A DNA stretch of 64,000 bases from Clostridia bacterium (GCA_017420755.1 JAFQOG010000050.1:4146-68145); one strand, 5' to 3'. Positions 11,547 to 63,911 are shown, counted from the first letter of the stretch. Numbers and translations are program-made. Notes: generated by a model not told the origin, from the sequence alone.

Positions 11547-11733
11547 AAAAACCTCCATTGTTTTTGTCTGTTTTTCTTTTGTGCACTTTTGTTAACTTTT
11601 GTGCAATTTGTGCACTTGTATTATCTATATTACACTATTTTGTTGTGTTTTTCAATAGTTTTTTTGATATTTTTTTGTGAAAATTGCACATTATTTTGTC
11701 AAAATAACCAAATTGGCAATTTTTTGTATGCTT

Positions 11734-14644: not shown

Positions 14645-14694
14645 CTTCAATCCATTCTAACAAGCTACTTGTTATTTTCTTATTATGTACCTTT

Positions 14695-14721
14695 GGGACT
14701 GCCTAAAAATTCGGCAGTCCC
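14695..14721. promoter_or_regulatory. 9-bp GC-rich hairpin between dnaK and dnaJ
   Basis: GGGACTGCC-N9-GGCAGTCCC. There is no clean T-run on the minus strand, so it is probably an mRNA processing, stability or partial-termination element. Confidence 0.4.
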
Positions 14722-14736
14722 TTATGGTTTTACAAA

Positions 14737-33499: not shown

Positions 33500-33513
33500 G
33501 TTTACCGCCTAAA

Positions 33514-34914: not shown

Positions 34915-34947
34915 AATTTCTCTCCGTATACTTTTATAAAATGAAGT

Positions 34948-46223: not shown

Positions 46224-47324
46224 TTAATTAAGAATTATATCACAAATTTTGTCAACATCTTCAATCGTTAAATCTGCATAAAGCGGCAAGGTCAATACTC
46301 TATTTGCTATGTGCTTCGCCACCGGCGTTTTTTCTTCCCCTGCCGTTTCTAAATTTTTGTAGCATTCAAATCCGTTAATTAGCGGATAGAAATACTTTCT
46401 TGCTATTATATCGTTTGCCTTTAGCTTTTCAAAAATCTCATCGCGAGTATATTTGTATCCGTCAAATACTACTGGGAAATATGCGTAGTTCGTTTCTACG
46501 TTTTCCTGAATTGGGCAAAGAATTATTCCATTTGTGTTACCAAGTCTTTCACGGTAACGAGCAACCGCTCGTCCTCTTTTCGCAATTTCCTCGTCTATAT
46601 GACGAAGATTGCAAATTCCCATTGCCGCTTGGAATTCGTTCATTTTAGCATTACCAGAAACGTAAATGCCCTCCTCGGGTGTGTGCAGTCCGAAATTCTT
46701 CATATCGGTTAAAACCACCTCAAGAGAGCTATCATTATATGTAACTGCACCGCCCTCGATGGTGTTGAACACCTTTGTTGCGTGAAAGCTGAACATAGAT
46801 GCATCTCCAAAGTTAGCTGATGAAACGCCCTTATATTTCACGCCAAATGCGTGCGCGGAATCATAAATAACCTTTAAATTATGCTTTTTTGCAATAGCAT
46901 CAATCATTTCAACATCGCACATATTTCCATATACGTGTACAGGCACAATAGCTACTGTTTTATCAGTAATAAGCGATTCAATTTTTGTTACATCAATGGT
47001 ATAATCTATTGGATTTATATCGCAAAATACAGGAACAAGCCCATTTCTTGCTATTGCATGGGTGGTTGAGGCAAAGGTAAATGGTGTTGTAATAACCTCA
47101 CTGCCCTTTGGAAAATTCATCGCCTCAATCACAATTTCAAGCGCTAAGTGCCCGTTTGTAAAAAGCGTAACGCCTTTTGTGTTTAGATATTTTTTCAAAT
47201 CAGCCTCAAGCTGCTTGTGCTTTGCACCATTGTTGGTCAGCCAACGCGAGTCCCAAAGCTCCTTTATTTCCTCGCAATACTCCTCATAATTTGGCATTGA
47301 CGAGCGTGTTACGTTAATTGACAT
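46224..47324 (-). CDS. DegT/DnrJ/EryC1/StrS family sugar aminotransferase (likely acts on dTDP-4-keto-6-deoxyhexose)
   Basis: 366 aa. The PLP-Lys motif is SFHATKVFNTIEGG. It is adjacent to rfbA and rfbB. No 3,4-isomerase was seen in the locus. Confidence 0.85.
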   Translation of the reverse strand: MSINVTRSSMPNYEEYCEEIKELWDSRWLTNNGAKHKQLEADLKKYLNTKGVTLFTNGHLALEIVIEAMNFPKGSEVITTPFTFASTTHAIARNGLVPVFCDINPIDYTIDVTKIESLITDKTVAIVPVHVYGNMCDVEMIDAIAKKHNLKVIYDSAHAFGVKYKGVSSANFGDASMFSFHATKVFNTIEGGAVTYNDSSLEVVLTDMKNFGLHTPEEGIYVSGNAKMNEFQAAMGICNLRHIDEEIAKRGRAVARYRERLGNTNGIILCPIQENVETNYAYFPVVFDGYKYTRDEIFEKLKANDIIARKYFYPLINGFECYKNLETAGEEKTPVAKHIANRVLTLPLYADLTIEDVDKICDIILN

Positions 47325-47343: not shown

Positions 47344-48372
47344 TTATAAATTTAATTCTTTCATTATTTCATCAAGCTCTTGCTTAAAGCCTTTTTTAGT
47401 TGCGACTTGCCACACAAACTGACCTCTTGAGTTTCCTTCAACCATAACCCAACCGTCGTTGGTTAACGCGACGTCCCATCCAGTATATCTGTTCATCGGT
47501 ATAATCTGTGCTAATTCCTTGACCAGCTCAATCGCTTCGTTCCATCGAGGGATTTTAAACCCTATCAAATCATATTCAGTTTCAGGATGCTTTGTATATG
47601 ATTTCCCTTTTTCATCAGCTGCAGCTATGGTAATACCTGTTTGAGCATCAACCGCAACAATAATTCCTCCCGATCCTGCGTTATCGACAACCGAGTCCCC
47701 TCTGCCGACTCTTAAAAACGGATGTATAACCTCCACTCTATCATCAAAACGAATTGTAGGTATCCTTACAGTGTTGCAGGATTGAGGATGGAATTTGGCC
47801 ATTTCATCGACTTGAACAATAAGCTGCTCAGCCAAAAAACCATTCTTTCTTTTTTCTAATAGCTCGTAAAATGTTTCTTTTATACTTTTTTGTATGGTTA
47901 CGATCTCAACGCCTCTTCCAAAGCATGAATCCACAGGCTTTACGATAAAGCGGTTGTGCTTAGCGCAAAATTTTTCAAAAGCATCAAAGCTTTTTTCGTT
48001 TGTTACAGAACAAACATCTCGTTTGAAATATCTTTCAAAATATTGCAATGTTTTTTCTTTATCATCAAATATTTCAAGATTCCCATTTTGGTTCATTTTC
48101 TTTGCAGTTTCAGATCTCTGCCAATCCGAAACAAATTCCAAACGTTGCTCCATAGTCAAATCTTTAAAGCCTAAATAGCAAAACTCATCATATCCATAAA
48201 AATACTCTTTGTTTAAAAAGATCATTTCTTTTACTAATTTTCTTTTTTCTTTGTTCCCAATCTCGTTTCCATAAAACTTATTAATAGCATTTTTCGCTTT
48301 TTTTACATTTCTACGATGATCTACTATTTTTTTCAAAAAAGTTTTTCTTAAAATCTTTTTAACAACAGACAT
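47344..48372 (-). CDS. sugar-transfer-associated ATP-grasp protein (ATPgrasp_ST-like)
   Basis: 342 aa. FIVKPVDSCFGRGV and VDNAGSGGIIVAVDAQTG match my recollection of the PF14397-type family. Confidence 0.7.
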   Translation of the reverse strand: MSVVKKILRKTFLKKIVDHRRNVKKAKNAINKFYGNEIGNKEKRKLVKEMIFLNKEYFYGYDEFCYLGFKDLTMEQRLEFVSDWQRSETAKKMNQNGNLEIFDDKEKTLQYFERYFKRDVCSVTNEKSFDAFEKFCAKHNRFIVKPVDSCFGRGVEIVTIQKSIKETFYELLEKRKNGFLAEQLIVQVDEMAKFHPQSCNTVRIPTIRFDDRVEVIHPFLRVGRGDSVVDNAGSGGIIVAVDAQTGITIAAADEKGKSYTKHPETEYDLIGFKIPRWNEAIELVKELAQIIPMNRYTGWDVALTNDGWVMVEGNSRGQFVWQVATKKGFKQELDEIMKELNL

Positions 48373-48474: not shown

Positions 48475-49782
48475 TTATAAAACCAACGGCCATAGCAACG
48501 GAACCAACACAAGCAACATAATCATCGATATCAACGTCATTGGTCCTGCATACTTTAAATAATCGCTGAATTTATAGTTTGCAACCATTGACATACCTAT
48601 TGTTGTATTAGCCAAAGGAGTAGCAACGGCCATAGCCGCGGCTATTGTCAAGCCAATTGCAAACGCATATGTATTGTAGCCCATTTCCGCGGTTATAGAG
48701 AAAACAACCGGCAAAATGATTGTTAAAACCGTAGAGTTCGAAAGGAACTGCGTTAAAACGATAACCAAAACAAGGAAGGCAAAATACAACCAGAATGCAG
48801 GAATATTAGAACCAAACAATCCTATAAACCACTTAGCAAGCAATTCACCGCCGCCGCTTGAATTTAAGCCTGCGGCTATTCCAAGACAAGCACAGAACCA
48901 AATTGCCAAATTCCAGTTGATGCTTTTAAGCGCATCCTTGTGAGAAATACAACCGGTCAAAACACACACGAGTGCGGAAATAAGCGCAACCGTTCCCACG
49001 TTAAATGCAGGTATTGACTTTTTAATAGTGTCCGCCAAAACAAACAATATAAGTGTTGCGATGAATATAACCGCCATAATTATCATCTTGCTTTTCTTAT
49101 ATTCTGTCTTTTCTGCTGCTTTTTTATCGATAGGAACCTCTGTATAATCTTCACGTTTTCCCCAAATCTTTTTGCCAAGAGGATATCCGATAAAGCCTGC
49201 ATATAAAACCAACACCGCTATTATTATAAATCCGGGAATCGAGAAGGAAAAGAATCCAAAGCCCTTTCCCGCGCCTAAATATTCTTCCAAAAGTCCGTTA
49301 GCCGTCAGCTGTGTGGTTGAGCCAACCAATGTTGCCGCGCCGCCAATTACCGCCGCCATTGAAACAGGCATAATAACGTTTTTAAATCTCACCTTTTCAT
49401 TTGACGAGGCAATACCCGTTAAAATGGAAATCATAATCGCAAGCGTTGCAATATTTGAAAGAAATGCCGATATAATAGCCGTTATTGCCGTACTGAGAAT
49501 AACAACAAGTCTTTCGTTTCCGCGCGCCAACTTGATTACCGAGTTTCCTACCAGCTGCGCCAAGCCCGTGTTAAAGGTTGCTTGTCCGACAACCATCATT
49601 GCGCAAATTAAAACAATTGTGCTGCTCCCGAAATTTTTAAATCCGTCGCTAAACGATACCACGTTTGTTAGCATCATTGCGGCAAGTCCAAGTAGCGCCA
49701 CAACGGCCGTCGGAAGCTTGTTCCAAATGAATAGAACAACAACGACCGCAAATATAATCAAGCTTGTAATCGCCGGACTCAT
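48475..49782 (-). CDS. SLC13/DASS- or CitMHS-like anion permease (ArsB/NhaD superfamily)
   Basis: 435-aa polytopic membrane protein with a central charged loop (KREDYTEVPIDKKAAEKTEYKKSK). The start forms an ATGA overlap with the upstream ATP-grasp stop. Confidence 0.65.
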   Translation of the reverse strand: MSPAITSLIIFAVVVVLFIWNKLPTAVVALLGLAAMMLTNVVSFSDGFKNFGSSTIVLICAMMVVGQATFNTGLAQLVGNSVIKLARGNERLVVILSTAITAIISAFLSNIATLAIMISILTGIASSNEKVRFKNVIMPVSMAAVIGGAATLVGSTTQLTANGLLEEYLGAGKGFGFFSFSIPGFIIIAVLVLYAGFIGYPLGKKIWGKREDYTEVPIDKKAAEKTEYKKSKMIIMAVIFIATLILFVLADTIKKSIPAFNVGTVALISALVCVLTGCISHKDALKSINWNLAIWFCACLGIAAGLNSSGGGELLAKWFIGLFGSNIPAFWLYFAFLVLVIVLTQFLSNSTVLTIILPVVFSITAEMGYNTYAFAIGLTIAAAMAVATPLANTTIGMSMVANYKFSDYLKYAGPMTLISMIMLLVLVPLLWPLVL

Positions 49783-51071
49783 TGATTTTCACCATACCTT
49801 TCAAATAGTCTTCTCACGTCAAAATCTTTATATTTCATACTTTTGCCGTTTTCATCTAAAACGTCGACCGCGTTTTGAATGGATTTAATCGCTTCAGCAA
49901 CTTCTTTAATATTTCCGCTTCGAATGACAGCCCTAAAGCCTCTTTGCGACAACGTGTTGTTGTCAACAATTTTTTCTCCAACATCATGCATATATTCCGC
50001 CGACTTTACACATTTCAAAGCCAAAGCATCTTCAAGTCCGAATTGCTTTGATATAGTTCCTCCGTGAAGCCATATGTTATAATTCAACATATATTCGGGA
50101 AACTCGGCATTATCCTTGCTAAGATCACCGCAGCCCATTTCACCGGTAACAGCATGATAAAGCATCATTTTCATAAAATTGATTCCGTTAATTTCCTCAA
50201 TCAAGCGGTAATCGTGTGCTCCGTTTGGACGGTATCCGCATTCAAAAAGCACGATTCGTTCTTTTGTCGCCACACCTTGGAAAAATACTGTTCCGTCAGT
50301 CGCCTTCATACCCTTAAGCATCGAAACGACGTTTGGATTGATTTCTCTTTGATACATCGGCAAATAACACGACGGGCAAACCAACACATCTCCTTGAGAG
50401 GTTATGTTTTCATGATCCTCGGAAATAAGCTTATCTCTAAAGCAGGATAGTGATATTTCTCCGTTTTTCATTGTATAAGTAGCCGTTATCTCATCGCCTA
50501 CTACATATTCTTCAACCAAAACATTTTTGCCGGGCGATACGGAAAGAGCATATTCGTAAGCTTCATGCAATTCTTCTTTTGTTCTGCAAATACGAACGCC
50601 ACGTCCACCGCTGCTGTCAACAGGCTTAACTATAACCGGGAACTCAACCTTAGTTACGTCTATATCATTATTTGTAATTGCATCTTTATAATCCTTTGGA
50701 ACGGACACTCCATACTCTCGGCATACTTCCTTGAAAAACTTTTTGTCCAAGGACATATGTATCTGCTCCTTAGATGCATAAAACGGCAAATTCAAGCGAT
50801 CACAAATTTCTCTTGCGTACGGAAGCATAGAATCGATAAACGCTGTAAAAATTCCATCCACCTTTTCTTTTTTACAAAACTCCACAACCGCATCAACGTC
50901 GGTTGTGCTGATTAAGTGAGCCTCATCAGCCACCTTTTTTGCGGGAGAATCGGGCAAATAATCAATAACTATCGTATAAATTTCCATTTCCTTTGCTATT
51001 TTAACAGGCTCACATAGAGCGCGTATAGCTCCTAAAAACAGCAGACGTTTTCCTTTTACTTCTTCGTACAT
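49779..51071 (-). CDS. ATP-grasp domain ligase (carboxylate-amine ligase type)
   Basis: 430 aa with a pre-ATP-grasp Rossmann region (KRLLFLGA). FPVIVKPVDSSGGRGV and the LVEEYV motif are present. Confidence 0.8.
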   Translation of the reverse strand: MYEEVKGKRLLFLGAIRALCEPVKIAKEMEIYTIVIDYLPDSPAKKVADEAHLISTTDVDAVVEFCKKEKVDGIFTAFIDSMLPYAREICDRLNLPFYASKEQIHMSLDKKFFKEVCREYGVSVPKDYKDAITNNDIDVTKVEFPVIVKPVDSSGGRGVRICRTKEELHEAYEYALSVSPGKNVLVEEYVVGDEITATYTMKNGEISLSCFRDKLISEDHENITSQGDVLVCPSCYLPMYQREINPNVVSMLKGMKATDGTVFFQGVATKERIVLFECGYRPNGAHDYRLIEEINGINFMKMMLYHAVTGEMGCGDLSKDNAEFPEYMLNYNIWLHGGTISKQFGLEDALALKCVKSAEYMHDVGEKIVDNNTLSQRGFRAVIRSGNIKEVAEAIKSIQNAVDVLDENGKSMKYKDFDVRRLFERYGENQ

Positions 51072-51131: not shown

Positions 51132-51666
51132 TTAAAATCCCAAGCCTAGTATATCATCTGAGCATTCATCTTTTAAAACACCCATAATAACCATGCTAAT
51201 ATATTTCCCATTTTTATAATTGGATTCTCTTTTTATCCCTTCCTTCGAGAAACCAATTTTTTCGTAAAGCTTAATTGCCGGAATATTGTTTTCAAGAACA
51301 CCAAGCTCTATTCTGCGCAAATTCAAATTATTAAACGCATGAGAGAGCATATGCTTAACAGCAAATGTGCCTATTCCTTTTCCGTGATTTTTAGAGTCCC
51401 CTATCATAATGTGAAGCTCGGCTGTACGATTTATATAGTTAATATTTAACAAGCTTATTAAGCCTAAAATCTCTTCTTCATGCTCTGTATCATAAATTAC
51501 GCAACGAACCGAATTGTTTCTAGAGCCCAAATACTTATCAGTCAATATCAACATCCTCGTTAATAAAACGATATGGTGCGCCAAGACACGCTATCAAATT
51601 TGAATCGTTTCGCCATTTGTTAATTTTCTTTACATCTTCTCTTTCAAGTTCTCTCAATCTAAGCAT
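51132..51666 (-). pseudogene. GNAT N-acetyltransferase interrupted by a frameshift
   Basis: Frame A (51538-51666) reads MLRLRELEREDVKKINKWRNDSNLIACLGAPYRFINEDVDID*. Frame B (51132-~51545) continues TDKYLGSRNNSVRCVIYD...HGKGIGT...KLYEKIGF. The track ORF start at 51584 is a TTG artefact. Confidence 0.7.
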
Positions 51667-52623: not shown

Positions 52624-55290
52624 TTATTTTAATACAACCCTTATCCACTCTTGTGAATTATCCATCATATCAAGCATCTCTTCCATGCTATCAAACCTCA
52701 TAAGTAAAATACCCAATGTTGTATTTGCACCTACGAAGGCTTTGATTTCATCCCCTTGCTTTTTCAAAATGTGATTTTCAACTATATTATTCTTTTCTAC
52801 ATTTTCATCTATTTCGATTTTGTCAAGTATTCCATCATGCAAGCTATGCACCGCATAGTAAGCATAGTATCCGTTTGGCTTGCCAAAATCACACTTTATT
52901 TCTTCGCCCATTGCAGCCTTTATTGAGCATTCAACCAAATCAACGCCTGTTGCGTATTTAATTATTTGAGGAATATAATTTCCACCATCTCTTGGTGCTA
53001 TTTCCATAAGATAAACATTATAATCCTTATCAATACGCATGTCAAAATTATAAGTAGTTGTTTTCATGTCAAGCAAATCAATTAGACGTTGTATTTCGTT
53101 ATGAACCTTTGTTTGAACTTCCTCTGACATATTGTAAGGAAAGCTTGCTGAAATTGGTACAAATGGGTTTACGCAGTTAGGATTAAAGTGATCATTTGCA
53201 AAATATCTAAAAACAAGCTTGCCGTCAACCGAAAGGCCATCTCCTGCTATTTGATATCCAAGCTTTTCAACGAACTCCTCAACTATAACACGATGTCCTC
53301 TTGAAAACGACATCGCATAATTTAATTTTTCTAATGCTTCTTCACAGCTGTCTATTCGAGATACTCCCTTGCTTCCTGACGAATCAACAGGCTTTACTAT
53401 AACAGGAAGGGCGAATATTCCCTTTTTAACATCCTCAAGCGCCTCATTCACATCACAATAGCCCTGCGCTTTTGGGGTGCAAAAGCCATTATCGGACAAG
53501 AACTTTCTAAATTTATCTTTATTACATAAAATATCAACAGATTCATACGGGCTCGTCGCAAGTCCCATCTTCTCTGCAACATATGCCGCCGTTGGAGCAG
53601 CGGGATCTGACGCATAAGCAAGAACACCGTCAACCATTTCCTTTTGTGCCACCTCAAGCACGGCTTCCTTGTCGGTCGTGCTAATAAGATAGAACTTGTC
53701 CGCATGCTCTTGACCTGGATTATCAGTTAAATAGTCACATAATACGGTGTAGTATCCGAGCTTTTTAGCTGTTTTTATCGCCACTATTTGCTGCGCAGAC
53801 CCACCTAAAAGCAATATTTTTTTCATTTTGTCATCTTTCTTTTTTGATTTTCCTTTTAGAATAGATTTGATTTTAGAAATCAAAAATTCAAATCCTTTCA
53901 ATTTAAATATCGCAGAAAGCGCAATATATATTGCCACGCCTGTAATAATCTGCAACACTAACAGCACAGCGCTTGGCAAATTTACAAATGATATTGCATA
54001 AACCATTCCAAACATTACAAGAGAAATAAGAAATGCTGGAAATAAATCCTTAATTTGTTCAAAATATGAATATCCTATGAGCTTTTTGTTTGGGAAGGCG
54101 TTAATAAATGAGCCAGAAAAGGCCGTAAAAACACCAGTCATTGCAATTGCTATTGGGCTATTGAAGCAGAACACCGCTATAACCAAAGCCGAAATGCCCA
54201 TTATCTTCTTTATAATTTCAAGCTTTAAAAATATATCACTTCTGCCCATTGCATTTATCGCTTGCAAATTACAGCTATGTATTGGCAAAAATGCCAAAAT
54301 AAAGCAATATATCATCATATATGGCACTGCCGGCAACCATTTATCTGTCAAAATAACAGAAATAAGCGGGGACGCAACTGCAGCAAGTCCTGCCATCATT
54401 GGAAATATTATATATGCGCTAACCGACATTGATGTGCGCATCATTGCTTTGACCTTAGTCTTTTCGTCTTGCTCCTTTGCCATAGCTGGGAGCATAACGC
54501 TTTGCACTGCGCCATTGATTCCGTTCATCAAAAACTGTGGGAACTGTTTTCCACGGTTATAATATCCAAGAGTTCCGCTATCATATTTTTTTCCTATTAC
54601 TAAGCTTCTTAAGTCTTGATAAAGTGTGTCGATAAGACCGGAAACTAATAGCTTCCATCCGAATGAGAAAAGCTCCTTTATTCTTTTGAAATTTATAACA
54701 AGCCTTGGGAACCATCTTACCGTAAACATCATAACAACCGATGCAACACAAACGTTGACAAGGTTTTGAGCGACGAGTGCCCAAACACCTGCCCCCATAT
54801 ATGCCATACCTATACCGACAGCGCCGGAAACAATAATTGAGCCAAGGTTACTTATAAACACCTTTTTAAAGTTCATTTCTCTACTAACCTTAGCAAGCTG
54901 AATAGAGTTGAACGCACCAGGCAACAGCATTAATCCAAGGCACCTGAATGGTTTTACGATTTCTGGCATATCATAAAAATCTGCAATTAATGGCGCTGCG
55001 AAAAATAGTATTATGTATGCAACAACAGCGATTGCAAAGGATACCCAAAATGCAGATGAATAATCATCCTTTGTTATATTCTTTTTTTGTATTAGTGCCG
55101 TATTAAAGCCGTTTTGTATAAACACATTTGCAAGTGTTGTAAATATTATCATTATGGATAAAACGCCATAATGCTCAGGAGAAAGTAATCGTGCAAGAAT
55201 AATTTGCAAAACAAACTGTACGCCATGAACTCCAAAGCGCTCTAATAGCTTCCAGCCAAGTGCTTTTGAGACACTATTTGTGTTATTCAT
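52624..55290 (-). CDS. fusion protein: Wzx-type (MOP superfamily) polysaccharide flippase (aa 1-~488) + ATP-grasp ligase (aa ~489-888)
   Basis: The N-terminal half is polytopic and typical of polysaccharide biosynthesis flippases. There is no stop before the in-frame MKKILLLGGSAQQIV...VIVKPVDSSGSKGV segment, which is a paralogue of the 430-aa ATP-grasp. The internal ATG at 53826 has no good SD. Confidence 0.75.
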   Translation of the reverse strand: MNNTNSVSKALGWKLLERFGVHGVQFVLQIILARLLSPEHYGVLSIMIIFTTLANVFIQNGFNTALIQKKNITKDDYSSAFWVSFAIAVVAYIILFFAAPLIADFYDMPEIVKPFRCLGLMLLPGAFNSIQLAKVSREMNFKKVFISNLGSIIVSGAVGIGMAYMGAGVWALVAQNLVNVCVASVVMMFTVRWFPRLVINFKRIKELFSFGWKLLVSGLIDTLYQDLRSLVIGKKYDSGTLGYYNRGKQFPQFLMNGINGAVQSVMLPAMAKEQDEKTKVKAMMRTSMSVSAYIIFPMMAGLAAVASPLISVILTDKWLPAVPYMMIYCFILAFLPIHSCNLQAINAMGRSDIFLKLEIIKKIMGISALVIAVFCFNSPIAIAMTGVFTAFSGSFINAFPNKKLIGYSYFEQIKDLFPAFLISLVMFGMVYAISFVNLPSAVLLVLQIITGVAIYIALSAIFKLKGFEFLISKIKSILKGKSKKKDDKMKKILLLGGSAQQIVAIKTAKKLGYYTVLCDYLTDNPGQEHADKFYLISTTDKEAVLEVAQKEMVDGVLAYASDPAAPTAAYVAEKMGLATSPYESVDILCNKDKFRKFLSDNGFCTPKAQGYCDVNEALEDVKKGIFALPVIVKPVDSSGSKGVSRIDSCEEALEKLNYAMSFSRGHRVIVEEFVEKLGYQIAGDGLSVDGKLVFRYFANDHFNPNCVNPFVPISASFPYNMSEEVQTKVHNEIQRLIDLLDMKTTTYNFDMRIDKDYNVYLMEIAPRDGGNYIPQIIKYATGVDLVECSIKAAMGEEIKCDFGKPNGYYAYYAVHSLHDGILDKIEIDENVEKNNIVENHILKKQGDEIKAFVGANTTLGILLMRFDSMEEMLDMMDNSQEWIRVVLK

Positions 55291-55311
55291 TTATTTCTCC
55301 CTTCTAATTTT

Positions 55312-56259
55312 TTATAATTTTTTCTTTATTGTTGACCCACGCTGTCCTGTAAATATTTTTTTAAAAATCATCACTATTGCTGCTGGTTCTTTAAATGCAT
55401 AGTAAATTGCTTTTTTGGTTATTTTGAATACGTTTTTGTCAACAAAAATATCTTCAAATGCCAATTGATTTTTTCTGTTTTTAAATTTTATTTTTCTTCC
55501 GAAATTTTCTTTTGTTGCTTTTTCGAGTGTTCTAAGCGCATTCCAAAACCTATGAATCCTTTTTTTGTCACCCAAGATTCTTGATGACCAAGAATTTCCG
55601 CCTTGCTCACTTACGTGCCTATAAACGGAATGCTTTTCATCAAGTCGCCATATATCCCCGTAAAGAAGCAAGAAAAGAGTTATTTTCATATCACCGGGTA
55701 GCTTGGCTTTTTCAAAGCATAGATACTTTTCAAGGTTGCTTGTAAATATATTGCGGCAAACATATGTCGCCAACTGTCCCGGCATTTCATATTTTTGAAA
55801 ATCATCAAGAGTATATACACCCTCGTTTTCATAATACCCAAAAGTTATTTTGTCAACCTTTTCGCCTTTTCTATTAATTACATCATATTTATGTATGCAC
55901 GCTATATATTCGGGGTGTTCGTCTAAAAAATCAACTTGTCTTTGGAGCTTGTCTTCACTAGTCCAGTAGTCATCTCCCTCGCACCAAGCTATATATTCAC
56001 CTTTTGCTATCGGATAAATATAAGTAGATGAGATTTTCACTCCCTTTGACATTTGATTTTCTGTTTGGTATATAGGCTTTATTATGTTTGGATACTTCTC
56101 CTCATACTCGCGAATAATGCTTGCAGAATTATCAGTCGAAGCATCATCGTGTATTAAAACCTCATATTCAAAATTACATTTTTGATTTACAAAGCCATCA
56201 AGACATTTTCTTAAATATGGCTCGTGATTGTAAACCAAACAAATTACTGAAACCTTCAT
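55312..56259 (-). CDS. family 2 glycosyltransferase
   Basis: MKVSVICLVYNHEPYLRKCLDG...HDDASTDN are GT-A/GT2 motifs. Confidence 0.85.
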   Translation of the reverse strand: MKVSVICLVYNHEPYLRKCLDGFVNQKCNFEYEVLIHDDASTDNSASIIREYEEKYPNIIKPIYQTENQMSKGVKISSTYIYPIAKGEYIAWCEGDDYWTSEDKLQRQVDFLDEHPEYIACIHKYDVINRKGEKVDKITFGYYENEGVYTLDDFQKYEMPGQLATYVCRNIFTSNLEKYLCFEKAKLPGDMKITLFLLLYGDIWRLDEKHSVYRHVSEQGGNSWSSRILGDKKRIHRFWNALRTLEKATKENFGRKIKFKNRKNQLAFEDIFVDKNVFKITKKAIYYAFKEPAAIVMIFKKIFTGQRGSTIKKKL

Positions 56260-56301
56260 GTTGAATCCTTTTATACTTTGATAATATTCTCTCGTTTCGG
56301 A

Positions 56302-57270
56302 CTAATGCGCTTTTCCCTGCTTGCGACTCATAATTTTTAAATATAGCCTTGGACAAATCGAAGCGACCAGTGCTTTTGCCTTTGCCCTATATCTAAGCTT
56401 TTTAAACGAACGCAAGTTTAAATGCTTTTTCAAATTTTTAATAATATTTTTTGAATATTTCTTTTGAGCCTCTTTATCCCCTGCTATTTTAGAAAGCATA
56501 CCAAGATCACTATTTATAGTCTTTGCATCCACAGTTGACACAAGGGCTTTTTTATCTTTTTCCAAAACAAGCTCTCTCATTTTTTGGCACGCTTTATGAG
56601 ATGAATTCATATAGCGCTCGGTGAGTTTGCTGTGAAATGCACTATTTTCGTGTAAATAATAATTATATAACGGCTCGGAGAAGTATACGATTTTTATAGG
56701 ATTAAACAAAATCCTTAAAACCGCAAGCATATCTTCAAAAATATAAATATCCTCATCGAGTCTTACGTTTTCAAAAAGCTCTGCCTTGAAAAGTTTGTTA
56801 CATAGATGTCCTGCAAAGGGCTTTCCCTTTAAAACCACCTCAAGCGCGACAGATGAATCATAGATTTCTGTTTTTATTTCGCTTTTGTTTTCTTGTACTC
56901 CACTCGGAGTAATAAATTTAAAATCACAAACAGAAATTTGAGCGTTTGAATCTATTAAATTGTTATAAAGCTTTTCATACATAGTCGGCTCGATTGTATC
57001 ATCACTGTCAACAAAGCCAACATATTCACCTTTTATATTATTAAGTGCAGTATTTCTCGCAGAGGAAACGCCGCCGTTTTCTTTATGTATTACAACTATT
57101 CTATCGTCTTTTTTCGCCCACTCGTCGCAAATTTTGCCACAATTGTCGGGCGAGCCATCGTCTACAAGTATTAACTCAAAATCCTTAAACGTCTGATTTA
57201 AAATACTTTCAATACATTTATCAAGATATTTTTCAGTTTTATATACAGGAACTATTATGCTTATTTTCAT
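56302..57270 (-). CDS. family 2 glycosyltransferase
   Basis: ISIIVPVYKTEKYLDKCIESILNQT...VDDGSPD...DSDD. Confidence 0.88.
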   Translation of the reverse strand: MKISIIVPVYKTEKYLDKCIESILNQTFKDFELILVDDGSPDNCGKICDEWAKKDDRIVVIHKENGGVSSARNTALNNIKGEYVGFVDSDDTIEPTMYEKLYNNLIDSNAQISVCDFKFITPSGVQENKSEIKTEIYDSSVALEVVLKGKPFAGHLCNKLFKAELFENVRLDEDIYIFEDMLAVLRILFNPIKIVYFSEPLYNYYLHENSAFHSKLTERYMNSSHKACQKMRELVLEKDKKALVSTVDAKTINSDLGMLSKIAGDKEAQKKYSKNIIKNLKKHLNLRSFKKLRYRAKAKALVASICPRLYLKIMSRKQGKAH

Positions 57271-57292
57271 AAATTCTCCAAAACTTCAAAAC

Positions 57293-58447
57293 TTACAAGC
57301 CTAACTCGTCAATCAGGCTTTTGGCTGTATTTCTTTCTTCTTGTGTCACGCTTTTATTGCTTTTTATTTCCGTGGTGGCGCGCTTTCTGCCTGGACCAAA
57401 GGCTATTCTAAACCACCTTACAATCTGCAAAAATGGATATAGAATCGGCCATTTAATTAAAACCTTATAGCTTTTCTTTAGCTGGCTATATGGCATAAAG
57501 ATTCTGCCCCAAAGGCGCTTAAATGCTCCGCCCTTAGCCCCCTGCTCCATTGCAAGATTTTGCTCAACCGTTCCGTAAACACCGCCTTGCAAAATAAAGT
57601 CTTCCATGCTTTTTGTAATCTCTGTATGACTTTGATTTTCAAACCACGCGTCAACAAGTAAAAGTGCAAAGCTATAAAGCTTGTCAAGTCCTTCTTGCTT
57701 AAGAAGCGCAGCGACCTTATTTTCATCATAATTCATTTTGTTCTTTATAATCCACAAATCAACAAGTGGCTTTATTCCGCATCCACCATACTTAAAATGC
57801 TTTGCCATATGGTATATGTGGAAAAACAAGAACATTTCATTTGTCATTGCGTATTCGCAACCCGAAACCTTAACAAGCTCTCCACCGTCCCAAATTTGGG
57901 TTAAAAGTGGCGATTCCTTAAAATCTGTTTCTTTAAGCTCAAAGTGAAGCTCTATATGTACTCTGTTCGGCGACAGTAAAGAAATATCGTGAGTTGAAAC
58001 GAATGTGCACTCGTAATTTAGCTCATTGACAATCAAGCCCTTTGCTTTTTCAATATCCTCTTTTTTAATTAAAATATCTATATCACAGCTTGTCCTTAGC
58101 CACGGCTCCTTATAGTAGTTTCTTAAAACTGAGCCCTTGAGTGGGAGAAATGGTATTTCGTTTTTCTCAAGCAATGAGCGAACGCGATTAAGTTCATAAT
58201 TTTGGTTTTCATATCTGAATATTGTTTTAAAAATAGACTTCTTATAATTTGCATCCGTATCGAGCACAAGCCCATTTTTATGTAGTCCATCAAAAACCAA
58301 CTGTGTTATATCGTGCTCCTTTGCCATTTGCAAAGCCTCGGATATAATTTCCTCTGTGCATAGCTTTTTGTCGTTTTCAGACAGAGGTGCTTCTTTTAAA
58401 GACGACTCAAGACAAGAAAACAGTATTCTATTTGTATTTTCGTTCAT
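57293..58447 (-). CDS. uncharacterised nucleotidyltransferase family protein (NTP_transf_5-like)
   Basis: 384 aa. IPFLPLKGSVLRNYYKEPWLRTSCDIDILI matches my recollection of the PF14907 family. Confidence 0.6.
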   Translation of the reverse strand: MNENTNRILFSCLESSLKEAPLSENDKKLCTEEIISEALQMAKEHDITQLVFDGLHKNGLVLDTDANYKKSIFKTIFRYENQNYELNRVRSLLEKNEIPFLPLKGSVLRNYYKEPWLRTSCDIDILIKKEDIEKAKGLIVNELNYECTFVSTHDISLLSPNRVHIELHFELKETDFKESPLLTQIWDGGELVKVSGCEYAMTNEMFLFFHIYHMAKHFKYGGCGIKPLVDLWIIKNKMNYDENKVAALLKQEGLDKLYSFALLLVDAWFENQSHTEITKSMEDFILQGGVYGTVEQNLAMEQGAKGGAFKRLWGRIFMPYSQLKKSYKVLIKWPILYPFLQIVRWFRIAFGPGRKRATTEIKSNKSVTQEERNTAKSLIDELGL

Positions 58448-58487
58448 TTATAGCACCCCTTTCTAAAATATAATCTAAAATATAATT

Positions 58488-59666
58488 TTATCCTAACGCG
58501 AAGAAATAATTTTCTGCGAAATTAACCATAAATGTATATATATCATTAAACATAAACATAAAGAACGCAACCGGCAAAACTATAATATTCTCCCAGCTCA
58601 TCTCTTTTTTTTCATTATGTATTGGTATTATCATAAGGAACGCGTAAGAAACCAAATACATAAATCTTTCAAGGTATAAATAGTTAAATGAAAGTCCTAT
58701 GGCAACAGCGCCAACCGTTGCTGTAAAGTTAGCTATTGTTTTTTTATACCCATCCTCATCCTTATATTTTTCCTTTGCCCTAAGCGAAATAACAAACAAA
58801 TATATAGATAAGGCAATAAAGCAAAAATATATAAGAATTGTTGCTCCATGAAAGCTTTTGAGTGCTGTCGAAAAGCTCTTGCTTTCAAGGGTTTGAAGGA
58901 TTCTATTAAACGAAAAGCGTAAATATCCGCTATTTACATTGTTTATCATAAATCGAGAAATTGGCTCTATCGCAAATCCAATTCCCAAAGCGATTAACAT
59001 TGTTAAAACAGGCTTTCTCAGCTTTGAAGCCAACCATGTAAGTATAACCACAAGTGCGAAGTTGTGAACAAAAATAGCAACCACACACAAAAGAACAGCC
59101 ATAACTATTGAAAGTGCCTTGTTTTTCTTTTTTGTCATCAAAAGATATATAGCCAAGGAAACAAGAGAAACGGCAAATGAGCATCTGATACCGGAAATTA
59201 CAAGCTTCATACCAAATGTACAAAGCCACATAAGAATTGCTAAAATTCTAACTTTTCCACTTGTCTGTGGCAAATAAGTTTTGAACATTTTGCGATATAT
59301 GTATCCAACTATCGCAAAATCAATAATAAGTGGAATTGTTGTTAAAAGATTTTTTAAATTTTCGGGTAACATGCTTATAAAATACGCAAAATAGTTAAAG
59401 ACATATAAGTCCTTATACTGGCTTTCAAAAACAACGTATTTTATTCCGCCCTCACGCATTTCGTCAAGCAAATAAAAGTGCTCAATCAAGTCCCATCTTA
59501 TAAACTCTTTAGGCTCAAAGAAAAACGAAAAAACAACAAAGATAGCAAAAATCGCAATTAAATATCCGCCACTGACTTTAGTGGAGGTTTTGCCTTCTGT
59601 TGCCAAGGTCAAACACATTGCAAAAAGCACTATTGCAAGAAATATAAAGCATATTATCTCTATCAT
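58488..59666 (-). CDS. EpsG/Wzy-like polysaccharide polymerase (polytopic membrane protein)
   Basis: 392 aa with about 10 or more hydrophobic helices and no other flippase-like signature. The call rests on position in the glycan locus. The start forms an ATGA overlap with the upstream GT. Confidence 0.55.
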   Translation of the reverse strand: MIEIICFIFLAIVLFAMCLTLATEGKTSTKVSGGYLIAIFAIFVVFSFFFEPKEFIRWDLIEHFYLLDEMREGGIKYVVFESQYKDLYVFNYFAYFISMLPENLKNLLTTIPLIIDFAIVGYIYRKMFKTYLPQTSGKVRILAILMWLCTFGMKLVISGIRCSFAVSLVSLAIYLLMTKKKNKALSIVMAVLLCVVAIFVHNFALVVILTWLASKLRKPVLTMLIALGIGFAIEPISRFMINNVNSGYLRFSFNRILQTLESKSFSTALKSFHGATILIYFCFIALSIYLFVISLRAKEKYKDEDGYKKTIANFTATVGAVAIGLSFNYLYLERFMYLVSYAFLMIIPIHNEKKEMSWENIIVLPVAFFMFMFNDIYTFMVNFAENYFFALG

Positions 59667-60733
59667 TTCTGTCCTCCCTTGTAAATGTCAATATATTTTT
59701 TTGCCATCTCTACCGATGAAAATGCTTGCGAACGATAAAGAGCATTTTGTCCAAGCTTTTTTCTCAGTTCTTCATCGTTTGAAAGACGCAAAAATGCATC
59801 CGCTATTTCTTTTGCATCAATCCTTGTCAAAATACCACTTTCGTTATTTGTCAGCATATCAGGAATTCCACCAACCTCTGTTGCAACAATTGGCAAGCCT
59901 GTGCCCATTGCCTCAATTAAAGTCATTGGTATTCCCTCATATATTGATGGTAAGGTGAAAACGTCCGCCTCGTGCAAAAATCCATAGACATTGCTTTGTA
60001 GTCCCAAGAATTTAACAGAGTGGGATAATCCGTTTTCCTTAGCATACTCCTCTATTTCTTCCTTTTTGGGCCCATCACCAATAAGCCAAAGCTCACTTTC
60101 CGGTTTTAGCGAATTGAATGCTTTAAAAGCATCTATAAGTCCTTTGTGGTTTTTTTCCTCAGAAAATCTTCCTATGTGAACTATTTTAAAGTTGTCATCT
60201 GTGCCATAGCTTTCTTTTTTTATACATTTTGATAAATTTATGCCGTTAAACACAACCGGAATATTATCAATACCATATACGTCAGCTACCGTTTCCTTTA
60301 CAGCCTCACTTAAAGCAACGGGAACGATGCCCTGCTTTTTATAAAATCTTTTAGCTAATATTTTATCGATTCTAGTAAGCTCCTTTTGTGCAACACTGTG
60401 CACTGTATGAGCGCGTGACGGCACTTTTGCTTTTTTTGCTGCTATCATAGCATATTTTTGCGATGACAAATGAGAATGAACAACATCCGGCTTTTCCTTC
60501 TCAAAAACCTTCTTAAGCTTTTTGAACATGGATATATCCATTCCCGGCTTTTTATCAAGAAAAATTATTTCAACACCGCTTTCTTTAAGTCTTTCAGTTA
60601 TTGGCGTTTTTTGGTTATACAAGCTTACTATTTTCACATCAACGCCCATATTCTTTAATTCAAGCGTTAAATTTTCACACATTATTTCAGCGCCACCCAT
60701 TAAAAGATTGGGTATAACCTGTATAACCTTCAT
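59663..60733 (-). CDS. family 4 (GT-B) glycosyltransferase
   Basis: C-terminal EGIPMTLIEAMGTGLPIVATEVGGIPD is the Glycos_transf_1 motif. Confidence 0.88.
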   Translation of the reverse strand: MKVIQVIPNLLMGGAEIMCENLTLELKNMGVDVKIVSLYNQKTPITERLKESGVEIIFLDKKPGMDISMFKKLKKVFEKEKPDVVHSHLSSQKYAMIAAKKAKVPSRAHTVHSVAQKELTRIDKILAKRFYKKQGIVPVALSEAVKETVADVYGIDNIPVVFNGINLSKCIKKESYGTDDNFKIVHIGRFSEEKNHKGLIDAFKAFNSLKPESELWLIGDGPKKEEIEEYAKENGLSHSVKFLGLQSNVYGFLHEADVFTLPSIYEGIPMTLIEAMGTGLPIVATEVGGIPDMLTNNESGILTRIDAKEIADAFLRLSNDEELRKKLGQNALYRSQAFSSVEMAKKYIDIYKGGQK

Positions 60734-60746
60734 AATTTTTCCTTTC

Positions 60747-61781
60747 TCATCTCTTGGATGAACAAATCAAATCCCAAATTTGTTTAGTTATTGTATCTAA
60801 TGAAAACTTTTCGGCAGATTTTAGACATTCTGCGCGGTATCCATTTATCTTTTCGATGTTTTCAACACAGTATTTTAACTTCGCATATAAATCCTCTGTG
60901 TCTGCGAATCTATATGTAATTGAGTCTTTTTCCGACAAAACATCAGCGTATGACTCCCACTCACTTGCCAAAACAGGAACGCCTGCTGAAAAGGCGTCTA
61001 TTATTGTTCCGGGTACGCCCTCTGTGTAGAACAGCGTTGGGAACAACAGCATATAGTGTCCCTTTAAAGCCTCTACGCTTTTGCTTGGATCGACAACCCC
61101 TTTATATTGAACAAAGGACGAATATTCCTCACATAGATTAGAAAATTCTTCCTTGTAGTCCTCACTAACCGGACCGTGTATATTAAGTGTGCAAACGTTT
61201 TTACCTGCCTCTTTGTTTAGTCTGTCACAGGCGCAAATTGCATCACCAATACCCTTTTGCTTTAAAATTCTAGAGAATATGCAAAGTGGGAGCGGCTCTT
61301 CAAAATCATATTTGATTTCTTTCTCGTTAATTGGAGTTATATCCTTGAAATTAGGAACGGTAACTACGTTATTAAAGCCCTGCGCCTCCAGCTTTTTTTG
61401 CATTGTTTTTGTTTCGGAAAAAATATAATCGAATTTTTTTAGTTGCTTTTTTAGTCCCTTTTTATTTTCCAAAAGCGATGGTAACCACGCGCCGATTACA
61501 CTGTATATCTTTACCTTTTTCTTTCCAAAAAGATTTATTATGCGCGTGTATATTTTTACGCTTCCACTTGCCGGTAGCATAATTATTACGTCGCTTTTTC
61601 GTGCTAACCTAACAACCTTGAAAAAGAACGAAAACGGATGCTTTTTCCATCTGTATGAATCAACGGTCAAAAATTCTTCTTTTTCGTTTAACAAAGCCTT
61701 TTCAAGGTTTCTTGTTTTCGTGGTTTGCCCGTCACACAGCTCTGTGCCCCTTGCAAAGTGTCCTAAAATGCCGATTTTCAT
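60747..61781 (-). CDS. GT-B fold glycosyltransferase (GT4-like)
   Basis: The TEGVPGTIIDAFSAGVPVLASEW motif. Confidence 0.75.
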   Translation of the reverse strand: MKIGILGHFARGTELCDGQTTKTRNLEKALLNEKEEFLTVDSYRWKKHPFSFFFKVVRLARKSDVIIMLPASGSVKIYTRIINLFGKKKVKIYSVIGAWLPSLLENKKGLKKQLKKFDYIFSETKTMQKKLEAQGFNNVVTVPNFKDITPINEKEIKYDFEEPLPLCIFSRILKQKGIGDAICACDRLNKEAGKNVCTLNIHGPVSEDYKEEFSNLCEEYSSFVQYKGVVDPSKSVEALKGHYMLLFPTLFYTEGVPGTIIDAFSAGVPVLASEWESYADVLSEKDSITYRFADTEDLYAKLKYCVENIEKINGYRAECLKSAEKFSLDTITKQIWDLICSSKR

Positions 61782-61800
61782 TTAAATTCTCCTGTGCTTA

Positions 61801-63012
61801 TCAATCCCTACGGAATAAGTCGCGAGTATAAACCTTATCAAAAACATCATCAAGACATGAATCATATCGGTTTGCTATTATAGCGTCCGACTTCGTCTTG
61901 AATTCATCAATATCGTTTACAACCTCGTTTCCGTAAAAGAGCTCTCCGCTATTTAAAGTAGGCTCATAAATTATTATTTTTGCACCGTTTGCGCTGATTC
62001 TCTTCATTACACCCTGGATTGACGACTGACGGAAATTATCCGAGCCCTCTTTCATAGTAAGCCTATATACGCCTACAACAGGGGCTTGTCCGTCCGAGTT
62101 TTTATGATCTGCTATTTTCAAAACTCTTTCAGAAATAAAGTCTTTTCTTGTACGATTGGATTGCACAATAGCCGACATCATGTTTTGCGGAACATCAGCA
62201 TAATTTGCAAGTAGCTGCTTTGTATCTTTAGGAAGACAATATCCGCCGTAACCGAAAGAAGGATTGTTATAATACGAGCCAATTCTTGGGTCAAGGCAAA
62301 CACCCTCTATAATTGAGCGAGCATCTAACCCTTTCATTTCCGCATATGTATCAAGCTCATTGAAATATGAAACTCGAAGCGCCAAATAAGTGTTAGCAAA
62401 AAGCTTTACCGCTTCCGCTTCAGTAGCCCCCATAAACAAGGTATCAATATTTTCCTTGATTGCGCCTTGCTTTAAAAGCTCTGCAAATGTTCTTGCAGCG
62501 TTAGCCATCTCTTCGTTTTCCATATCCGCACCGACAATAATTCTTGACGGAAAGAGGTTATCGTAAAGAGCCTTTGACTCTCTTAAAAATTCAGGGCTGA
62601 ACAATATTCTGTTTGTATTGTATTTGCTTTTCACCCTTTGCGTAAAGCCGACAGGAATTGTCGATTTAATCACAATAAATGCCGTAGGATTATAATTCAA
62701 AACACATTCTATTACGTTTTCAACTGCCGTTGTATCAAAGAAATTCTTTTCCGAATCATAATTTGTCGGAGCCGATACAACAACAAAGTCCGCGCCCTCA
62801 TATGCCTCTTTAGCATCTAAAGTTGCAAAAAGATTGAGTTCCTTTTCTTTGAAAAACTTTTCTATATATTCATCTTGAATCGGAGAAATTCTGTTGTTTA
62901 TTTTCTCTACCTTTTCAGGAATAATGTCAATCGCAACAACCTGATGATTTTGCGCTAACAAGGTTGCTATTGACAAACCAACATATCCCGTTCCAGCCAC
63001 TGCAATTTTCAT
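61801..63012 (-). CDS. ugd: UDP-glucose 6-dehydrogenase
   Basis: 403 aa with [14 protein letters not shown], the [10 protein letters not shown] catalytic Cys motif, and a UDPG_MGDP_dh C-terminal domain. Confidence 0.92.
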
Positions 63013-63036
63013 CTTTATAAACTCCTATCATTAAAT

Positions 63037-63855
63037 TTAATCGTTATCTTTATTTTTTACGGAATTAACATATCTTACTTTTTTCCAAAAGCCAAAATAC
63101 AAATTAACTAAAGTGTGCCATGTTGCTCTAATAGCGCCCATGTTTTCTCCGTAACGGAATAGCCTATAGTGACCGTTTAGTTTCTTTTTAAACCCGCTAT
63201 GAGAAATCGAATTGCTTCTTATACGATAAGATGCCAAGTTTTTGTCATAAAGATAGCAGTCACATTTTTTGCAAACCTTCAACCACATAGCGTAATCATT
63301 TCTGCATTTTAAAGACGGCTCCACTTGAATCAAACCAACATACTCATGATCATACATAACCGTCAAACATCCCAAATAGTCATATCTAAACATTTTTCTC
63401 TTGTTTATTTTTTTAGGTCCTGTTACTTCAACGTTTAAAGGATTGGATTTTTCATCAACATGGAAATAAGGAGTACCCGAAAAATGATATCCATTCTCAA
63501 CCATAAAGGCGATTTGCTCTTCGAGCTTTGTCGGAGCCCACAAATCATCGCTGTCAAGAAAGGCAATCCATTTTCCCTTCGCTTCTCTTAATGCATAGTT
63601 TCTTGAAACGGCGGCGCCACTATTTGCTTCGTTTTGAAGAATTTTAATACGCTCATCGTTAAACGAGCGGGCAATTTCAAGCGAATTATCAGTCGAGCAA
63701 TCGTCAACAAACAAAAGCTCCCAATTTTTATATGTTTGGGCAAGCACGCTTTTTATTGTTTCTGCCACATATTTTTCAGAATTATAGTTTGGCATTACAA
63801 TCGAAACCAAGCCGTAATCCTTTTCTTCGTTTGTTTTTTGATTCAATTCTTGCAT
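63037..63855 (-). CDS. family 2 glycosyltransferase (TuaG-like)
   Basis: VSIVMPNYNSEKYVAETIKSVLAQT...VDDCSTDNS...LDSDD. The ATG at 63855 (MQELNQ) is preferred, because the ATG at 63903 would sit almost at the predicted transcription start. Confidence 0.85.
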   Translation of the reverse strand: MQELNQKTNEEKDYGLVSIVMPNYNSEKYVAETIKSVLAQTYKNWELLFVDDCSTDNSLEIARSFNDERIKILQNEANSGAAVSRNYALREAKGKWIAFLDSDDLWAPTKLEEQIAFMVENGYHFSGTPYFHVDEKSNPLNVEVTGPKKINKRKMFRYDYLGCLTVMYDHEYVGLIQVEPSLKCRNDYAMWLKVCKKCDCYLYDKNLASYRIRSNSISHSGFKKKLNGHYRLFRYGENMGAIRATWHTLVNLYFGFWKKVRYVNSVKNKDND

Positions 63856-63911
63856 CTTATGTCCTTTATTACATATATAATTATTGCGCGTGGGTATACG
63901 CATACATTATT

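Follow-up and report, generated by a model that had tools for sequence, protein, structure and literature searches.

Why should a Wzx-type flippase and a ligase of the ATP-grasp family be encoded by one unbroken reading frame, and does it matter to either enzyme that they are joined? The question is raised by a 64,000-nt stretch of DNA from a Clostridia bacterium (GCA_017420755.1 JAFQOG010000050.1:4146-68145; the window), in which a single open reading frame (ORF) of a gut Clostridia polysaccharide operon carries both. We favor, with a probability of about 0.7, a real, recurrent and optional fusion that arose by stop loss at the boundary between polysaccharide assembly and precursor decoration, with a ligase that would add an amide-linked group to a 4-amino-6-deoxyhexose.

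One reading frame for flippase and ligase

The original prediction, made from the DNA sequence, described an uninterrupted 888-aa ORF joining a flippase to a full ATP-grasp enzyme, and the ORF list together with the Pfam and NCBIfam domains upheld it. In Pfam, Polysacc_synt_3 (PF13440) covered residues 31-323 with 328.3 bits against a cut-off of 23 (E 5e-98; profile positions 1-293 of 293), and residues ~590-800 matched ATP-grasp_4 (32.5 bits; cut-off 27), Dala_Dala_lig_C (30.7; 24) and CPSase_L_D2 (23.5; 19.8). A weak match to LAL_C2 (PF18603) on residues 819-887 reached 21.9 bits, below the cut-off of 29.4. The NCBIfam assignments, generic ATP-grasp and 'MOP flippase', were consistent with Pfam. 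The junction has no stop and reads ...ILKGKSKKKDDK-MKKILLLGGSAQQ... (in a longer reading, ...SILKGKSKKKDDK/MKKILLLGGSAQQ...; the stretch of the fusion protein that spans it is ...SILKGKSKKKDDKMKK...), with an internal ATG at 53826.

More specific names were rejected for both halves. The named flippase equivalogs scored well below their cut-offs on the N-terminal half (NF058658, O-glycosylation Wzx, 277.6 vs 720; PRK10459, WzxC-like, 186.7 vs 273; NF047674, TuaB, 152 vs 580), as did the purine-pathway equivalogs on the ligase, whose PDB relative 4dim bears the name 'PurD' (PRK09288, PurT, 63.4 vs 339; TIGR01142, 49.9 vs 502; PurK, 27.2 vs 375). The PurD, Ddl and cyanophycin synthetase equivalogs all fell far under the NCBIfam cut-offs. 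The architecture is an uncharacterised variant combination of two known families. A targeted literature search found no characterised flippase with a Wzx-ATP-grasp architecture, in keeping with what had been proposed, and searches pairing ATP-grasp with flippase or Wzx, or with viosamine, found nothing relevant.

We modelled the protein with AlphaFold2 (AF2) from a 28-sequence alignment. The model, with a mean predicted local distance difference test score (pLDDT) of 85 and a predicted template modelling score (pTM) of 0.52, placed 14 long membrane helices ahead of an amphipathic helix (residues 465-478), a linker (478-487) with pLDDT <50 and a well-folded alpha/beta domain. The mean pLDDT of 85, taken with the pTM of 0.52 and the poorly scored linker, suggests two confident domains on a flexible tether; no confident inter-domain docking was predicted by AF2, judged by that pTM. 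The linker is rich in Lys, Glu and Asn and ranges in length from roughly 5 to 75 residues across homologues. Lys and Arg residues number 19 in the predicted inside loops and tail versus 1 outside, arguing for an N-in/C-in topology that puts the ATP-requiring domain in the cytoplasm. Together with the 14 predicted helices, this supports the cytoplasmic Wzx C-terminus for which a topology check had been proposed. By family, the flippase half would be a Wzx-type translocase of undecaprenyl pyrophosphate-linked repeat units, and glycosyltransferases and an EpsG-like polymerase candidate lie in the same operon. In the ligase half, K591, K633, E671, D684 and R767 are invariant in the fused-protein alignment, positions 750 and 763 are always acidic save for one Gln at 750, and N771 is present in 24 of the 28 fused proteins; judged by this alignment, the domain retains the ATP- and Mg-binding residue set of ATP-grasp enzymes (two Lys, a hinge Glu, acidic Mg ligands and Arg/Asn). 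As read from its sequence, the ORF encodes a real bifunctional polypeptide, with a predicted 14-helix flippase, a Lys-rich tether and a catalytically intact ATP-grasp ligase.

The fusion might be only apparent, with the ligase made from the internal ATG at 53826 or with the stop missing through an artefact of assembly or strain. The A-rich runs at the junction are indel-prone, and NCBI splits the ORF in this metagenome-assembled genome (MAG), giving the ligase half an entry of its own (MBQ3041415.1, 400 aa) that begins at the internal Met, though the DNA has no stop upstream of that half; when the 400-aa half was looked up as an individually called gene, no record turned up. A contig from a second, independent sample (L091) carries 756 aa of the ORF at 100% identity, the fusion ORF was present on 4 contigs in the protein collection, and 27 further protein clusters of 885-937 aa covered 99-100% of the query at 43-93% identity with both halves conserved. 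The cultured isolate Rummeliibacillus sp. NPDC094406 also carries the fusion, annotated at NCBI merely as 'oligosaccharide flippase family protein'. A sequencing or assembly error is ruled out by the identical ORF in an independent sample, its occurrence on 4 contigs, and the fused relative at 93% identity with 26 other clusters. A simple homopolymer indel is likewise ruled out, the entire segment holding the stop and Shine-Dalgarno sequence being replaced relative to a split, syntenic locus (L007).

The internal Met is kept in the window protein and in about 12 of the 27 fused homologues. The remaining ~15 have no Met at the junction, so that the ligase cannot start separately at that position in those proteins; the closest relative (P0001, 93% identical) has Lys in its place (DKKKILLLGG, ...NEDKKKILLLGG). 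The internal ATG had been said to lack a convincing Shine-Dalgarno sequence, and this held: the upstream AGAAAG pairs only weakly with the 16S 3' end (free energy of the anti-Shine-Dalgarno duplex, dG, -5.6 kcal/mol), and the ATG ranks just 11th among the 73 internal ATGs by this measure (background -3.1 +/- 2.5). Across 16 gene starts of the operon, the fusion's own included, dG ran from +2.9 to -14.8, with 13 of the 16 at -6.0 or better; the junction value is comparable to those of the four weakest real starts (-6.4, -6.0, -3.0 and +2.9). Internal initiation at 53826 is unsupported.

Fused and split relatives

We classified by script 80 loci from GTDB species representatives, a set ranked towards loci with both halves. 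Five were fused at the junction (L010, L014 from Rummeliibacillus, L017, L020 and L057), 26 carried the two genes side by side with -3 to +68 nt between them, and 10 carried them 0.8-4 kb apart; the remaining 39 showed only one half under the script's thresholds. With 5 fused against 36 split among the representatives examined, the fusion is not a family-wide conserved state in the style of MprF, an aminoacyl-phosphatidylglycerol synthase fused to a lipid flippase (PMC8131360). The adjacent but split genes came from cultured organisms (Ruminococcus albus KH2T6, L034; Aerococcus viridans, L047; Lysinibacillus, L064; Porcipelethomonas) and from MAGs of Akkermansia, Phascolarctobacterium and Avigastranaerophilus.

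The original prediction had itself named a stop between the halves in orthologues as the observation that should count against it, and such a stop was found in many relatives, including the closest syntenic one. This locus (L007) has the window's gene order (wzx, ligase, 316-aa protein, GNAT, ATP-grasp 430, CitMHS, ATPgrasp_ST, DegT, RmlA); the flippases of the two share 80% identity, and its ligase (P0270, 87%) is the best stand-alone relative of the ligase half. Its junction, ...AAA AAA TAA GAGGCCAA ATG AAA AAA ATA..., consists of a stop, a Shine-Dalgarno sequence (GAGG; gaggccaa) and a start. L008 is split too, with an 11-nt gap, and in L009 the ligase does not adjoin wzx. In L004, whose flippase (P0029, 70%) is the nearest unfused one of the NCBI-derived set, the downstream ATP-grasp gene starts within the flippase stop; GTGA or ATGA overlaps occur in L030, L047 and L064 and, as ATGA, in L004, while in L021 TAA is followed directly by ATG in the same frame. 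From such in-frame arrangements and overlaps, a single substitution or 1-nt indel turns a split pair into a fused one. The split pairs of Bacillota exopolysaccharide (EPS) and capsular polysaccharide (CPS) loci (L007, L034, L047 and L064) share with the window the same two families, gene order and downstream cassette; they differ in having a stop and Shine-Dalgarno sequence, or a 4-nt start/stop overlap, where the window has an unbroken frame. The window fusion is still no error, as the fused form recurs.

Stand-alone relatives of the ligase, ~400 aa in length, number in the hundreds at 74-87% identity to the ligase half. A homology search with the ligase alone listed stand-alone proteins only; the known fusions were missing from it, probably through the way candidates are ranked. 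An exhaustive search of 50% clusters with the ligase found 780 clusters below E 1e-30, the best 150 of which were almost all ~400 aa. In a neighbor-joining tree of the flippase half (top 120 hits), parsimony required at least five gains or losses of the ATP-grasp fusion and at least seven of a second kind of fusion, Wzx-GNAT (596-674 aa). Among the loci compared, both halves of every fused protein were matched by unfused relatives, at 52-87% identity. Covalent tethering is clearly dispensable in most of the relatives inspected.

The two halves have also been inherited separately. P0003 and P0010 share flippases that are 99% identical and ligases that are 43% identical (96% and 38% for P0014 and P0018), while the query is 45-47% identical to P0004, P0006 and P0007 in the flippase and 76-77% in the ligase. 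Starting in the upstream glycosyltransferases, the DNA of L001 and L002 is 97.8% identical as far as position 11550, ~28 nt inside the ligase domain, is then unrelated over 5.2 kb (L001) or 3.5 kb (L002), and is again 98.9% identical from the first base of DegT. The exchanged segment holds the ligase domain, the 316-aa protein, GNAT, ATP-grasp 424 and CitMHS in L001, and a different ligase domain, ATP-grasp 423 and an ornithine-cyclodeaminase-family gene in L002; the reading frame across the junction was kept through the swap. The discordant halves and this breakpoint mark the flippase/ligase junction as a module boundary. By sequence comparison, the ligase is inherited with the variable downstream cassette and not with the flippase, and essentially one flippase apparently serves two different decoration cassettes. 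The 3' end of wzx and the 5' end of the ligase make up a boundary for recombination, where otherwise 98%-identical loci exchange decoration cassettes.

Under the stop-loss reading, wzx would be the last gene of an assembly and export block and the ligase the first gene of a variable precursor-decoration block, and the fusion would have arisen when the stop codon and Shine-Dalgarno sequence between two adjacent, often translationally coupled genes were lost. In cps loci of Gram-positive bacteria such as Streptococcus pneumoniae, the nucleotide-sugar genes come after wzx at the 3' end, a layout that fits wzx as merely the last gene before the precursor block.

Ligase chemistry and the role of the tether

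PDB sequence matches of the ligase half were led by 4dim ('PurD', from structural genomics; E 1e-28) and BL00235 (3vot; E 2e-20), followed by RizA, and a Foldseek search with the whole model returned, in order, 4dim, BL00235, BacD/YwfE, RizA and PurT, with a probability of 1.00 to 4dim, 3vot and 1kj9. By these matches the domain is most similar to the L-amino-acid ligases and falls in an L-amino-acid-ligase-like clade. The closest solved relatives are 4dim and the L-amino-acid ligases BL00235 (3vot), BacD/YwfE (3vmm) and RizA (4wd3), with sequence E values of 1e-28 to 7e-5 and TM-scores of 0.7-0.8 on the target, the LAL_C2-like C-terminal subdomain included. L-amino-acid ligases differ in being soluble, stand-alone enzymes that make dipeptides; they are only 16-23% identical to the fused ligase, whose LAL_C2 match is under the cut-off.

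The neighboring genes suggest a route to the acceptor. RmlA and RmlB would work by way of dTDP-4-keto-6-deoxyglucose and, with DegT, would yield a dTDP-4-amino-4,6-dideoxyhexose, which ATP-grasp ligases may go on to decorate, by amide bonds, with amino acids or organic acids as the carboxylate-bearing groups. By analogy with other ATP-grasp ligases, an acyl-phosphate would form at the expense of ATP and be attacked by the sugar amine, and the acceptor of the fused ligase is probably a 4-amino-6-deoxyhexose. The fused ligase would build the amide-linked side group together with the DegT-like pyridoxal phosphate (PLP) enzyme, the GNAT, two further ATP-grasp enzymes and the DASS transporter, of which the transporter may import one of the ligated groups and the GNAT may cap a free amine by later N-acetylation. 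This chemistry draws on the family and on a precedent cited in PMC11257628: an ATP-grasp enzyme of Bacillus cereus joins 2-oxoglutarate to a UDP-amino sugar, yielding UDP-yelosamine. That enzyme likewise belongs to a glycan operon and links an acid, through an amide bond, to the amino group of an amino sugar in nucleotide-activated form; it is stand-alone and acts on a UDP-sugar, and the comparison with the window ligase is one of chemistry. Tethering to Wzx would be optional and may give a 1:1 stoichiometry and proximity to the membrane.

Several observations weigh against this reading. Loci and proteins alike were listed in order of their similarity to the full fusion, and the fused and split counts are therefore no unbiased census. 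The acceptor could be a lipid-linked intermediate or, given the Ugd-like gene at 61801-63012, a uronic acid. The fused form has been maintained over a substantial divergence of 43-93% identity and through a frame-keeping cassette swap, and this persistence could reflect a selective benefit of tethering; similarly, the adjacency of wzx and ligase, found across several phyla, could reflect a physical interaction.

The same fusion could serve a different chemistry, in which the ligase activates the C6 carboxylate of a uronic acid and amidates it with an amino acid or amine, as the TupA-like Cj1438C does. We consider this unlikely. A Ugd-like nucleotide-sugar dehydrogenase lies inside the window's assembly block, amidation of glucuronic acid (GlcA) by an ATP-grasp enzyme is established for capsule (PMC11800379), and the three ATP-grasp ligases of the locus leave room for both types of reaction. 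On the other hand, L001-L009 showed no Ugd over 7-10 kb, whereas all nine had a DegT aminotransferase, and the ligase domain resembles L-amino-acid ligases and PurT, unlike the TupA-like family.

The repeated fusions to the Wzx tail (at least five ATP-grasp and at least seven GNAT events) could also be taken as a Rosetta-stone sign of a physical complex, in which decoration takes place on the lipid-linked unit at the flippase entrance and the enzymes assemble on Wzx even when encoded separately; we hold this to be less likely still. Less probable again is the proposal of the original prediction, that tethering acts as a quality gate which couples the last modification of the repeat unit to its export. 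In this scheme the tethered ligase finishes the undecaprenyl pyrophosphate-linked unit at the cytoplasmic mouth of Wzx and only finished units are flipped, as in MprF. ATP-grasp and GNAT domains were each repeatedly fused to the C-terminus of this Wzx clade, the fusion survived the cassette swap, wzx-ligase adjacency with start/stop overlaps is widespread, and there are precedents in MprF, whose flippase domain is coupled to a cytoplasmic aminoacylating domain (PMC8131360), and in Cj1438, where GlcA on the growing capsule has to be amidated by the ATP-grasp domain before the following transferase is able to act (PMC11800379). The quality gate was nevertheless not supported, because most relatives do without tethering, the two halves are inherited apart, AF2 predicted no docking and the partners are precursor-pathway enzymes. 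Split genes outnumber fused ones among the relatives inspected, the closest syntenic orthologue (flippase 80%, ligase 87%) included, and some close ligase homologues have their nearest flippase kilobases away, or no flippase at all inside 6 kb. The co-adaptation of flippase and ligase that a gate implies failed as well: 99%-identical flippases carry 43%-identical ligases, with the breakpoint at the junction, giving no sign of a co-adapted interface or of modification-specific recognition by the flippase. AF2 showed no confident inter-domain packing (pTM 0.52), and the conserved partners (DegT-like, GNAT, DegT, RmlA and RmlB) look like a nucleotide-sugar precursor pathway and not like enzymes acting on lipid-linked units. 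Finally, a fusion that is only apparent is very improbable, since neither of the two independent sample assemblies nor any of the 4 contigs has a stop and, without one, the flippase is necessarily made with the ligase attached, whatever starts internally.

Three known proteins offer partial parallels. MprF, the closest in logic, also joins a membrane flippase domain to a cytoplasmic domain at the C-terminus, which loads an amino acid onto the molecule that will be flipped; its two folds are unrelated ones (the flippase is not of the MOP type, and the synthase is GNAT-like and tRNA-dependent), its substrate is a phospholipid, and its fusion is the universal state, whereas split genes are commoner among the Wzx-ATP-grasp relatives inspected. 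Cj1438 of Campylobacter jejuni combines a GT2 glycosyltransferase with a TupA-like ATP-grasp amidoligase (PMC11800379). It is alike in fusing an amide-forming ATP-grasp domain to a polysaccharide assembly enzyme, with decoration during assembly, and unlike in that the partner is a glycosyltransferase, the ATP-grasp family is another one and the pathway depends on an ABC transporter. MviN (MurJ) of Mycobacterium tuberculosis carries a C-terminal pseudokinase domain (PMC12599244) and is thus a MOP-superfamily flippase with an extra cytoplasmic C-terminal domain, but that domain is non-catalytic and serves as a regulatory scaffold, unlike a tailoring enzyme, and the substrate is lipid II.

If the tethering is functional, the fusion would provide a handle on where Wzx/Wzy side-chain decorations are added and on how Wzx selects complete units. 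If it is neutral, the module boundary, the shared flippase for differently decorated units and the uncharacterised loci remain useful points. Many uncharacterised EPS loci of gut Clostridia hold up to three ATP-grasp genes, a DegT-like enzyme invisible to Pfam, a GNAT and a dedicated transporter, which points to structurally undescribed 4-amino-6-deoxyhexoses decorated with amino acids or organic acids.

The surrounding operon

The features of the locus are collected in Table 1.

Table 1. Position, strand and basis of assignment of the fusion ORF, its parts and its neighbors in the window
Feature	Coordinates	Strand	Basis
Single fusion ORF, Wzx-type flippase and ATP-grasp ligase, 888 aa, ATG start	52624..55290	-	ORF list; Pfam, NCBIfam
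MOP/Wzx membrane core, residues ~13-462, 14 predicted transmembrane helices	53905..55254	-	Polysacc_synt_3; AF2 helices, pLDDT ~80-90
Predicted cytoplasmic amphipathic helix and Lys-rich flexible linker, residues 463-488, ...KLKGFEFLISKIKSILKGKSKKKDDK	53827..53904	-	pLDDT
Predicted ATP-grasp carboxylate-amine ligase domain, residues 489-888 and stop	52624..53826	-	Pfam, PDB, Foldseek, conserved residues
21-nt intergenic spacer carrying the strong Shine-Dalgarno site of the fusion gene, AAGGGAGA	55291..55311	-	Sequence; anti-Shine-Dalgarno duplex dG -13.0
Divergent DegT-like fold-type-I PLP enzyme (predicted), 316 aa	51654..52604	-	AF2 and Foldseek
GNAT N-acetyltransferase gene, frameshifted by 5-bp deletion	51132..51666	-	Pfam GNAT on 150-aa remnant
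Stand-alone 430-aa ATP-grasp ligase, distant paralogue	49779..51071	-	Pfam; 28% identity, E 4e-34
DASS/CitMHS-type anion transporter, start overlaps upstream ligase gene by 4 nt	48475..49782	-	Pfam CitMHS E 2e-58
Third ligase, 'sugar-transfer associated' ATP-grasp (ATPgrasp_ST)	47344..48372	-	PF14397 E 3.5e-52
Canonical DegT/DnrJ/EryC1 sugar aminotransferase	46224..47324	-	PF01041 E 5e-98
RmlA	45342-46214	-	TIGR01207 467 bits vs cut-off 360.65
RmlB	44321-45340	-	TIGR01181 484 bits vs cut-off 365.1
Upstream assembly block: GT2, GT2, NTP_transf_5 protein, EpsG-like polymerase candidate, GT4, GT4, Ugd-like dehydrogenase, GT2	55312..63903	-	Pfam

The 316-aa protein encoded directly after the fusion gave no match in Pfam, NCBIfam or a PDB sequence search. 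Its AF2 model (pLDDT 87; pTM 0.86) retrieved ArnB, WbpE, PseC, perosamine synthase and other sugar aminotransferases in Foldseek at E ~1e-12, and on this structural evidence it is taken as a divergent, DegT-like protein with the PLP fold. R135-K136 is an invariant pair, homologues number 7266 at E<=1e-5, and the protein is 100% identical to NCBI MBQ3041414.1. Its gene always neighbors this ligase subtype and a GNAT, and the triad of ligase, DegT-like protein and GNAT recurs in L001, L007, L008 and L009.

The window GNAT differs from the intact 179-aa genes of L091 and L007 by a 5-bp deletion (TGGTA) at ~51540, and in L090 the gene was called as fragments of 42 aa and 91 aa. L091, in which the GNAT is intact, is a second sample of the window's species. 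The frameshift reflects an assembly error or, if real, a pseudogene or strain variant. The Wzx clade is also found fused to a C-terminal GNAT, in P0028, P0030, P0038, P0066, P0069, P0075, P0092 and P0109 and at 8001-9923 in L005; we rejected the idea that these fusions reuse the cassette GNAT, the two GNATs being only 22% identical. Other fusions of the ligase family or its neighbors, among them tandem ATP-grasp-ATP-grasp proteins, ATP-grasp with a hexapeptide acyltransferase and ATP-grasp with GNAT, were P0122 (799 aa), P0130 (824 aa), P0319 (599 aa) and one of 626 aa at 9761-11641 in L009.

The stand-alone ATP-grasp gene is a paralogue of the fused ligase, as had been predicted, though a distant one. 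It is paired with the DASS transporter also in L001, L005 and L007, and L005 adds an amino-acid permease. The transporter scored 152.9 bits against the NCBIfam DASS subfamily, below its cut-off of 198.6; its position within the cassette suggests import of the group to be ligated. The best model for the canonical DegT was the dTDP-4-dehydro-6-deoxyglucose aminotransferase TIGR04427 (268 bits, below the cut-off of 650). A gene of the NTP-transferase or 4,6-dehydratase families was seen, among L001-L009, only in L004-L008. The Ugd-like gene matched an NDP-sugar dehydrogenase subfamily with 312 bits against a cut-off of 189.8.

An alternative cassette with PALP-family and ornithine-cyclodeaminase-family genes is present in L002 and L003 (genes 133-1077 and 14004-15038). 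The pair recalls SbnA/SbnB, the enzymes that make L-2,3-diaminopropionate, and might provide the ligases with an uncommon amino acid. The window locus is flanked by an M20 peptidase/deacylase gene (42998-44290, +), which lies just past DegT in L001 and L002 as well and may belong to the decoration pathway. Farther along, on the minus strand, a 2465-aa ORF (34948-42345) is followed by genes for a MoxR AAA ATPase, a DUF58 protein and VWA/BatA-like proteins (30321-42345), and a 1305-aa ORF lies at 26438-30355.

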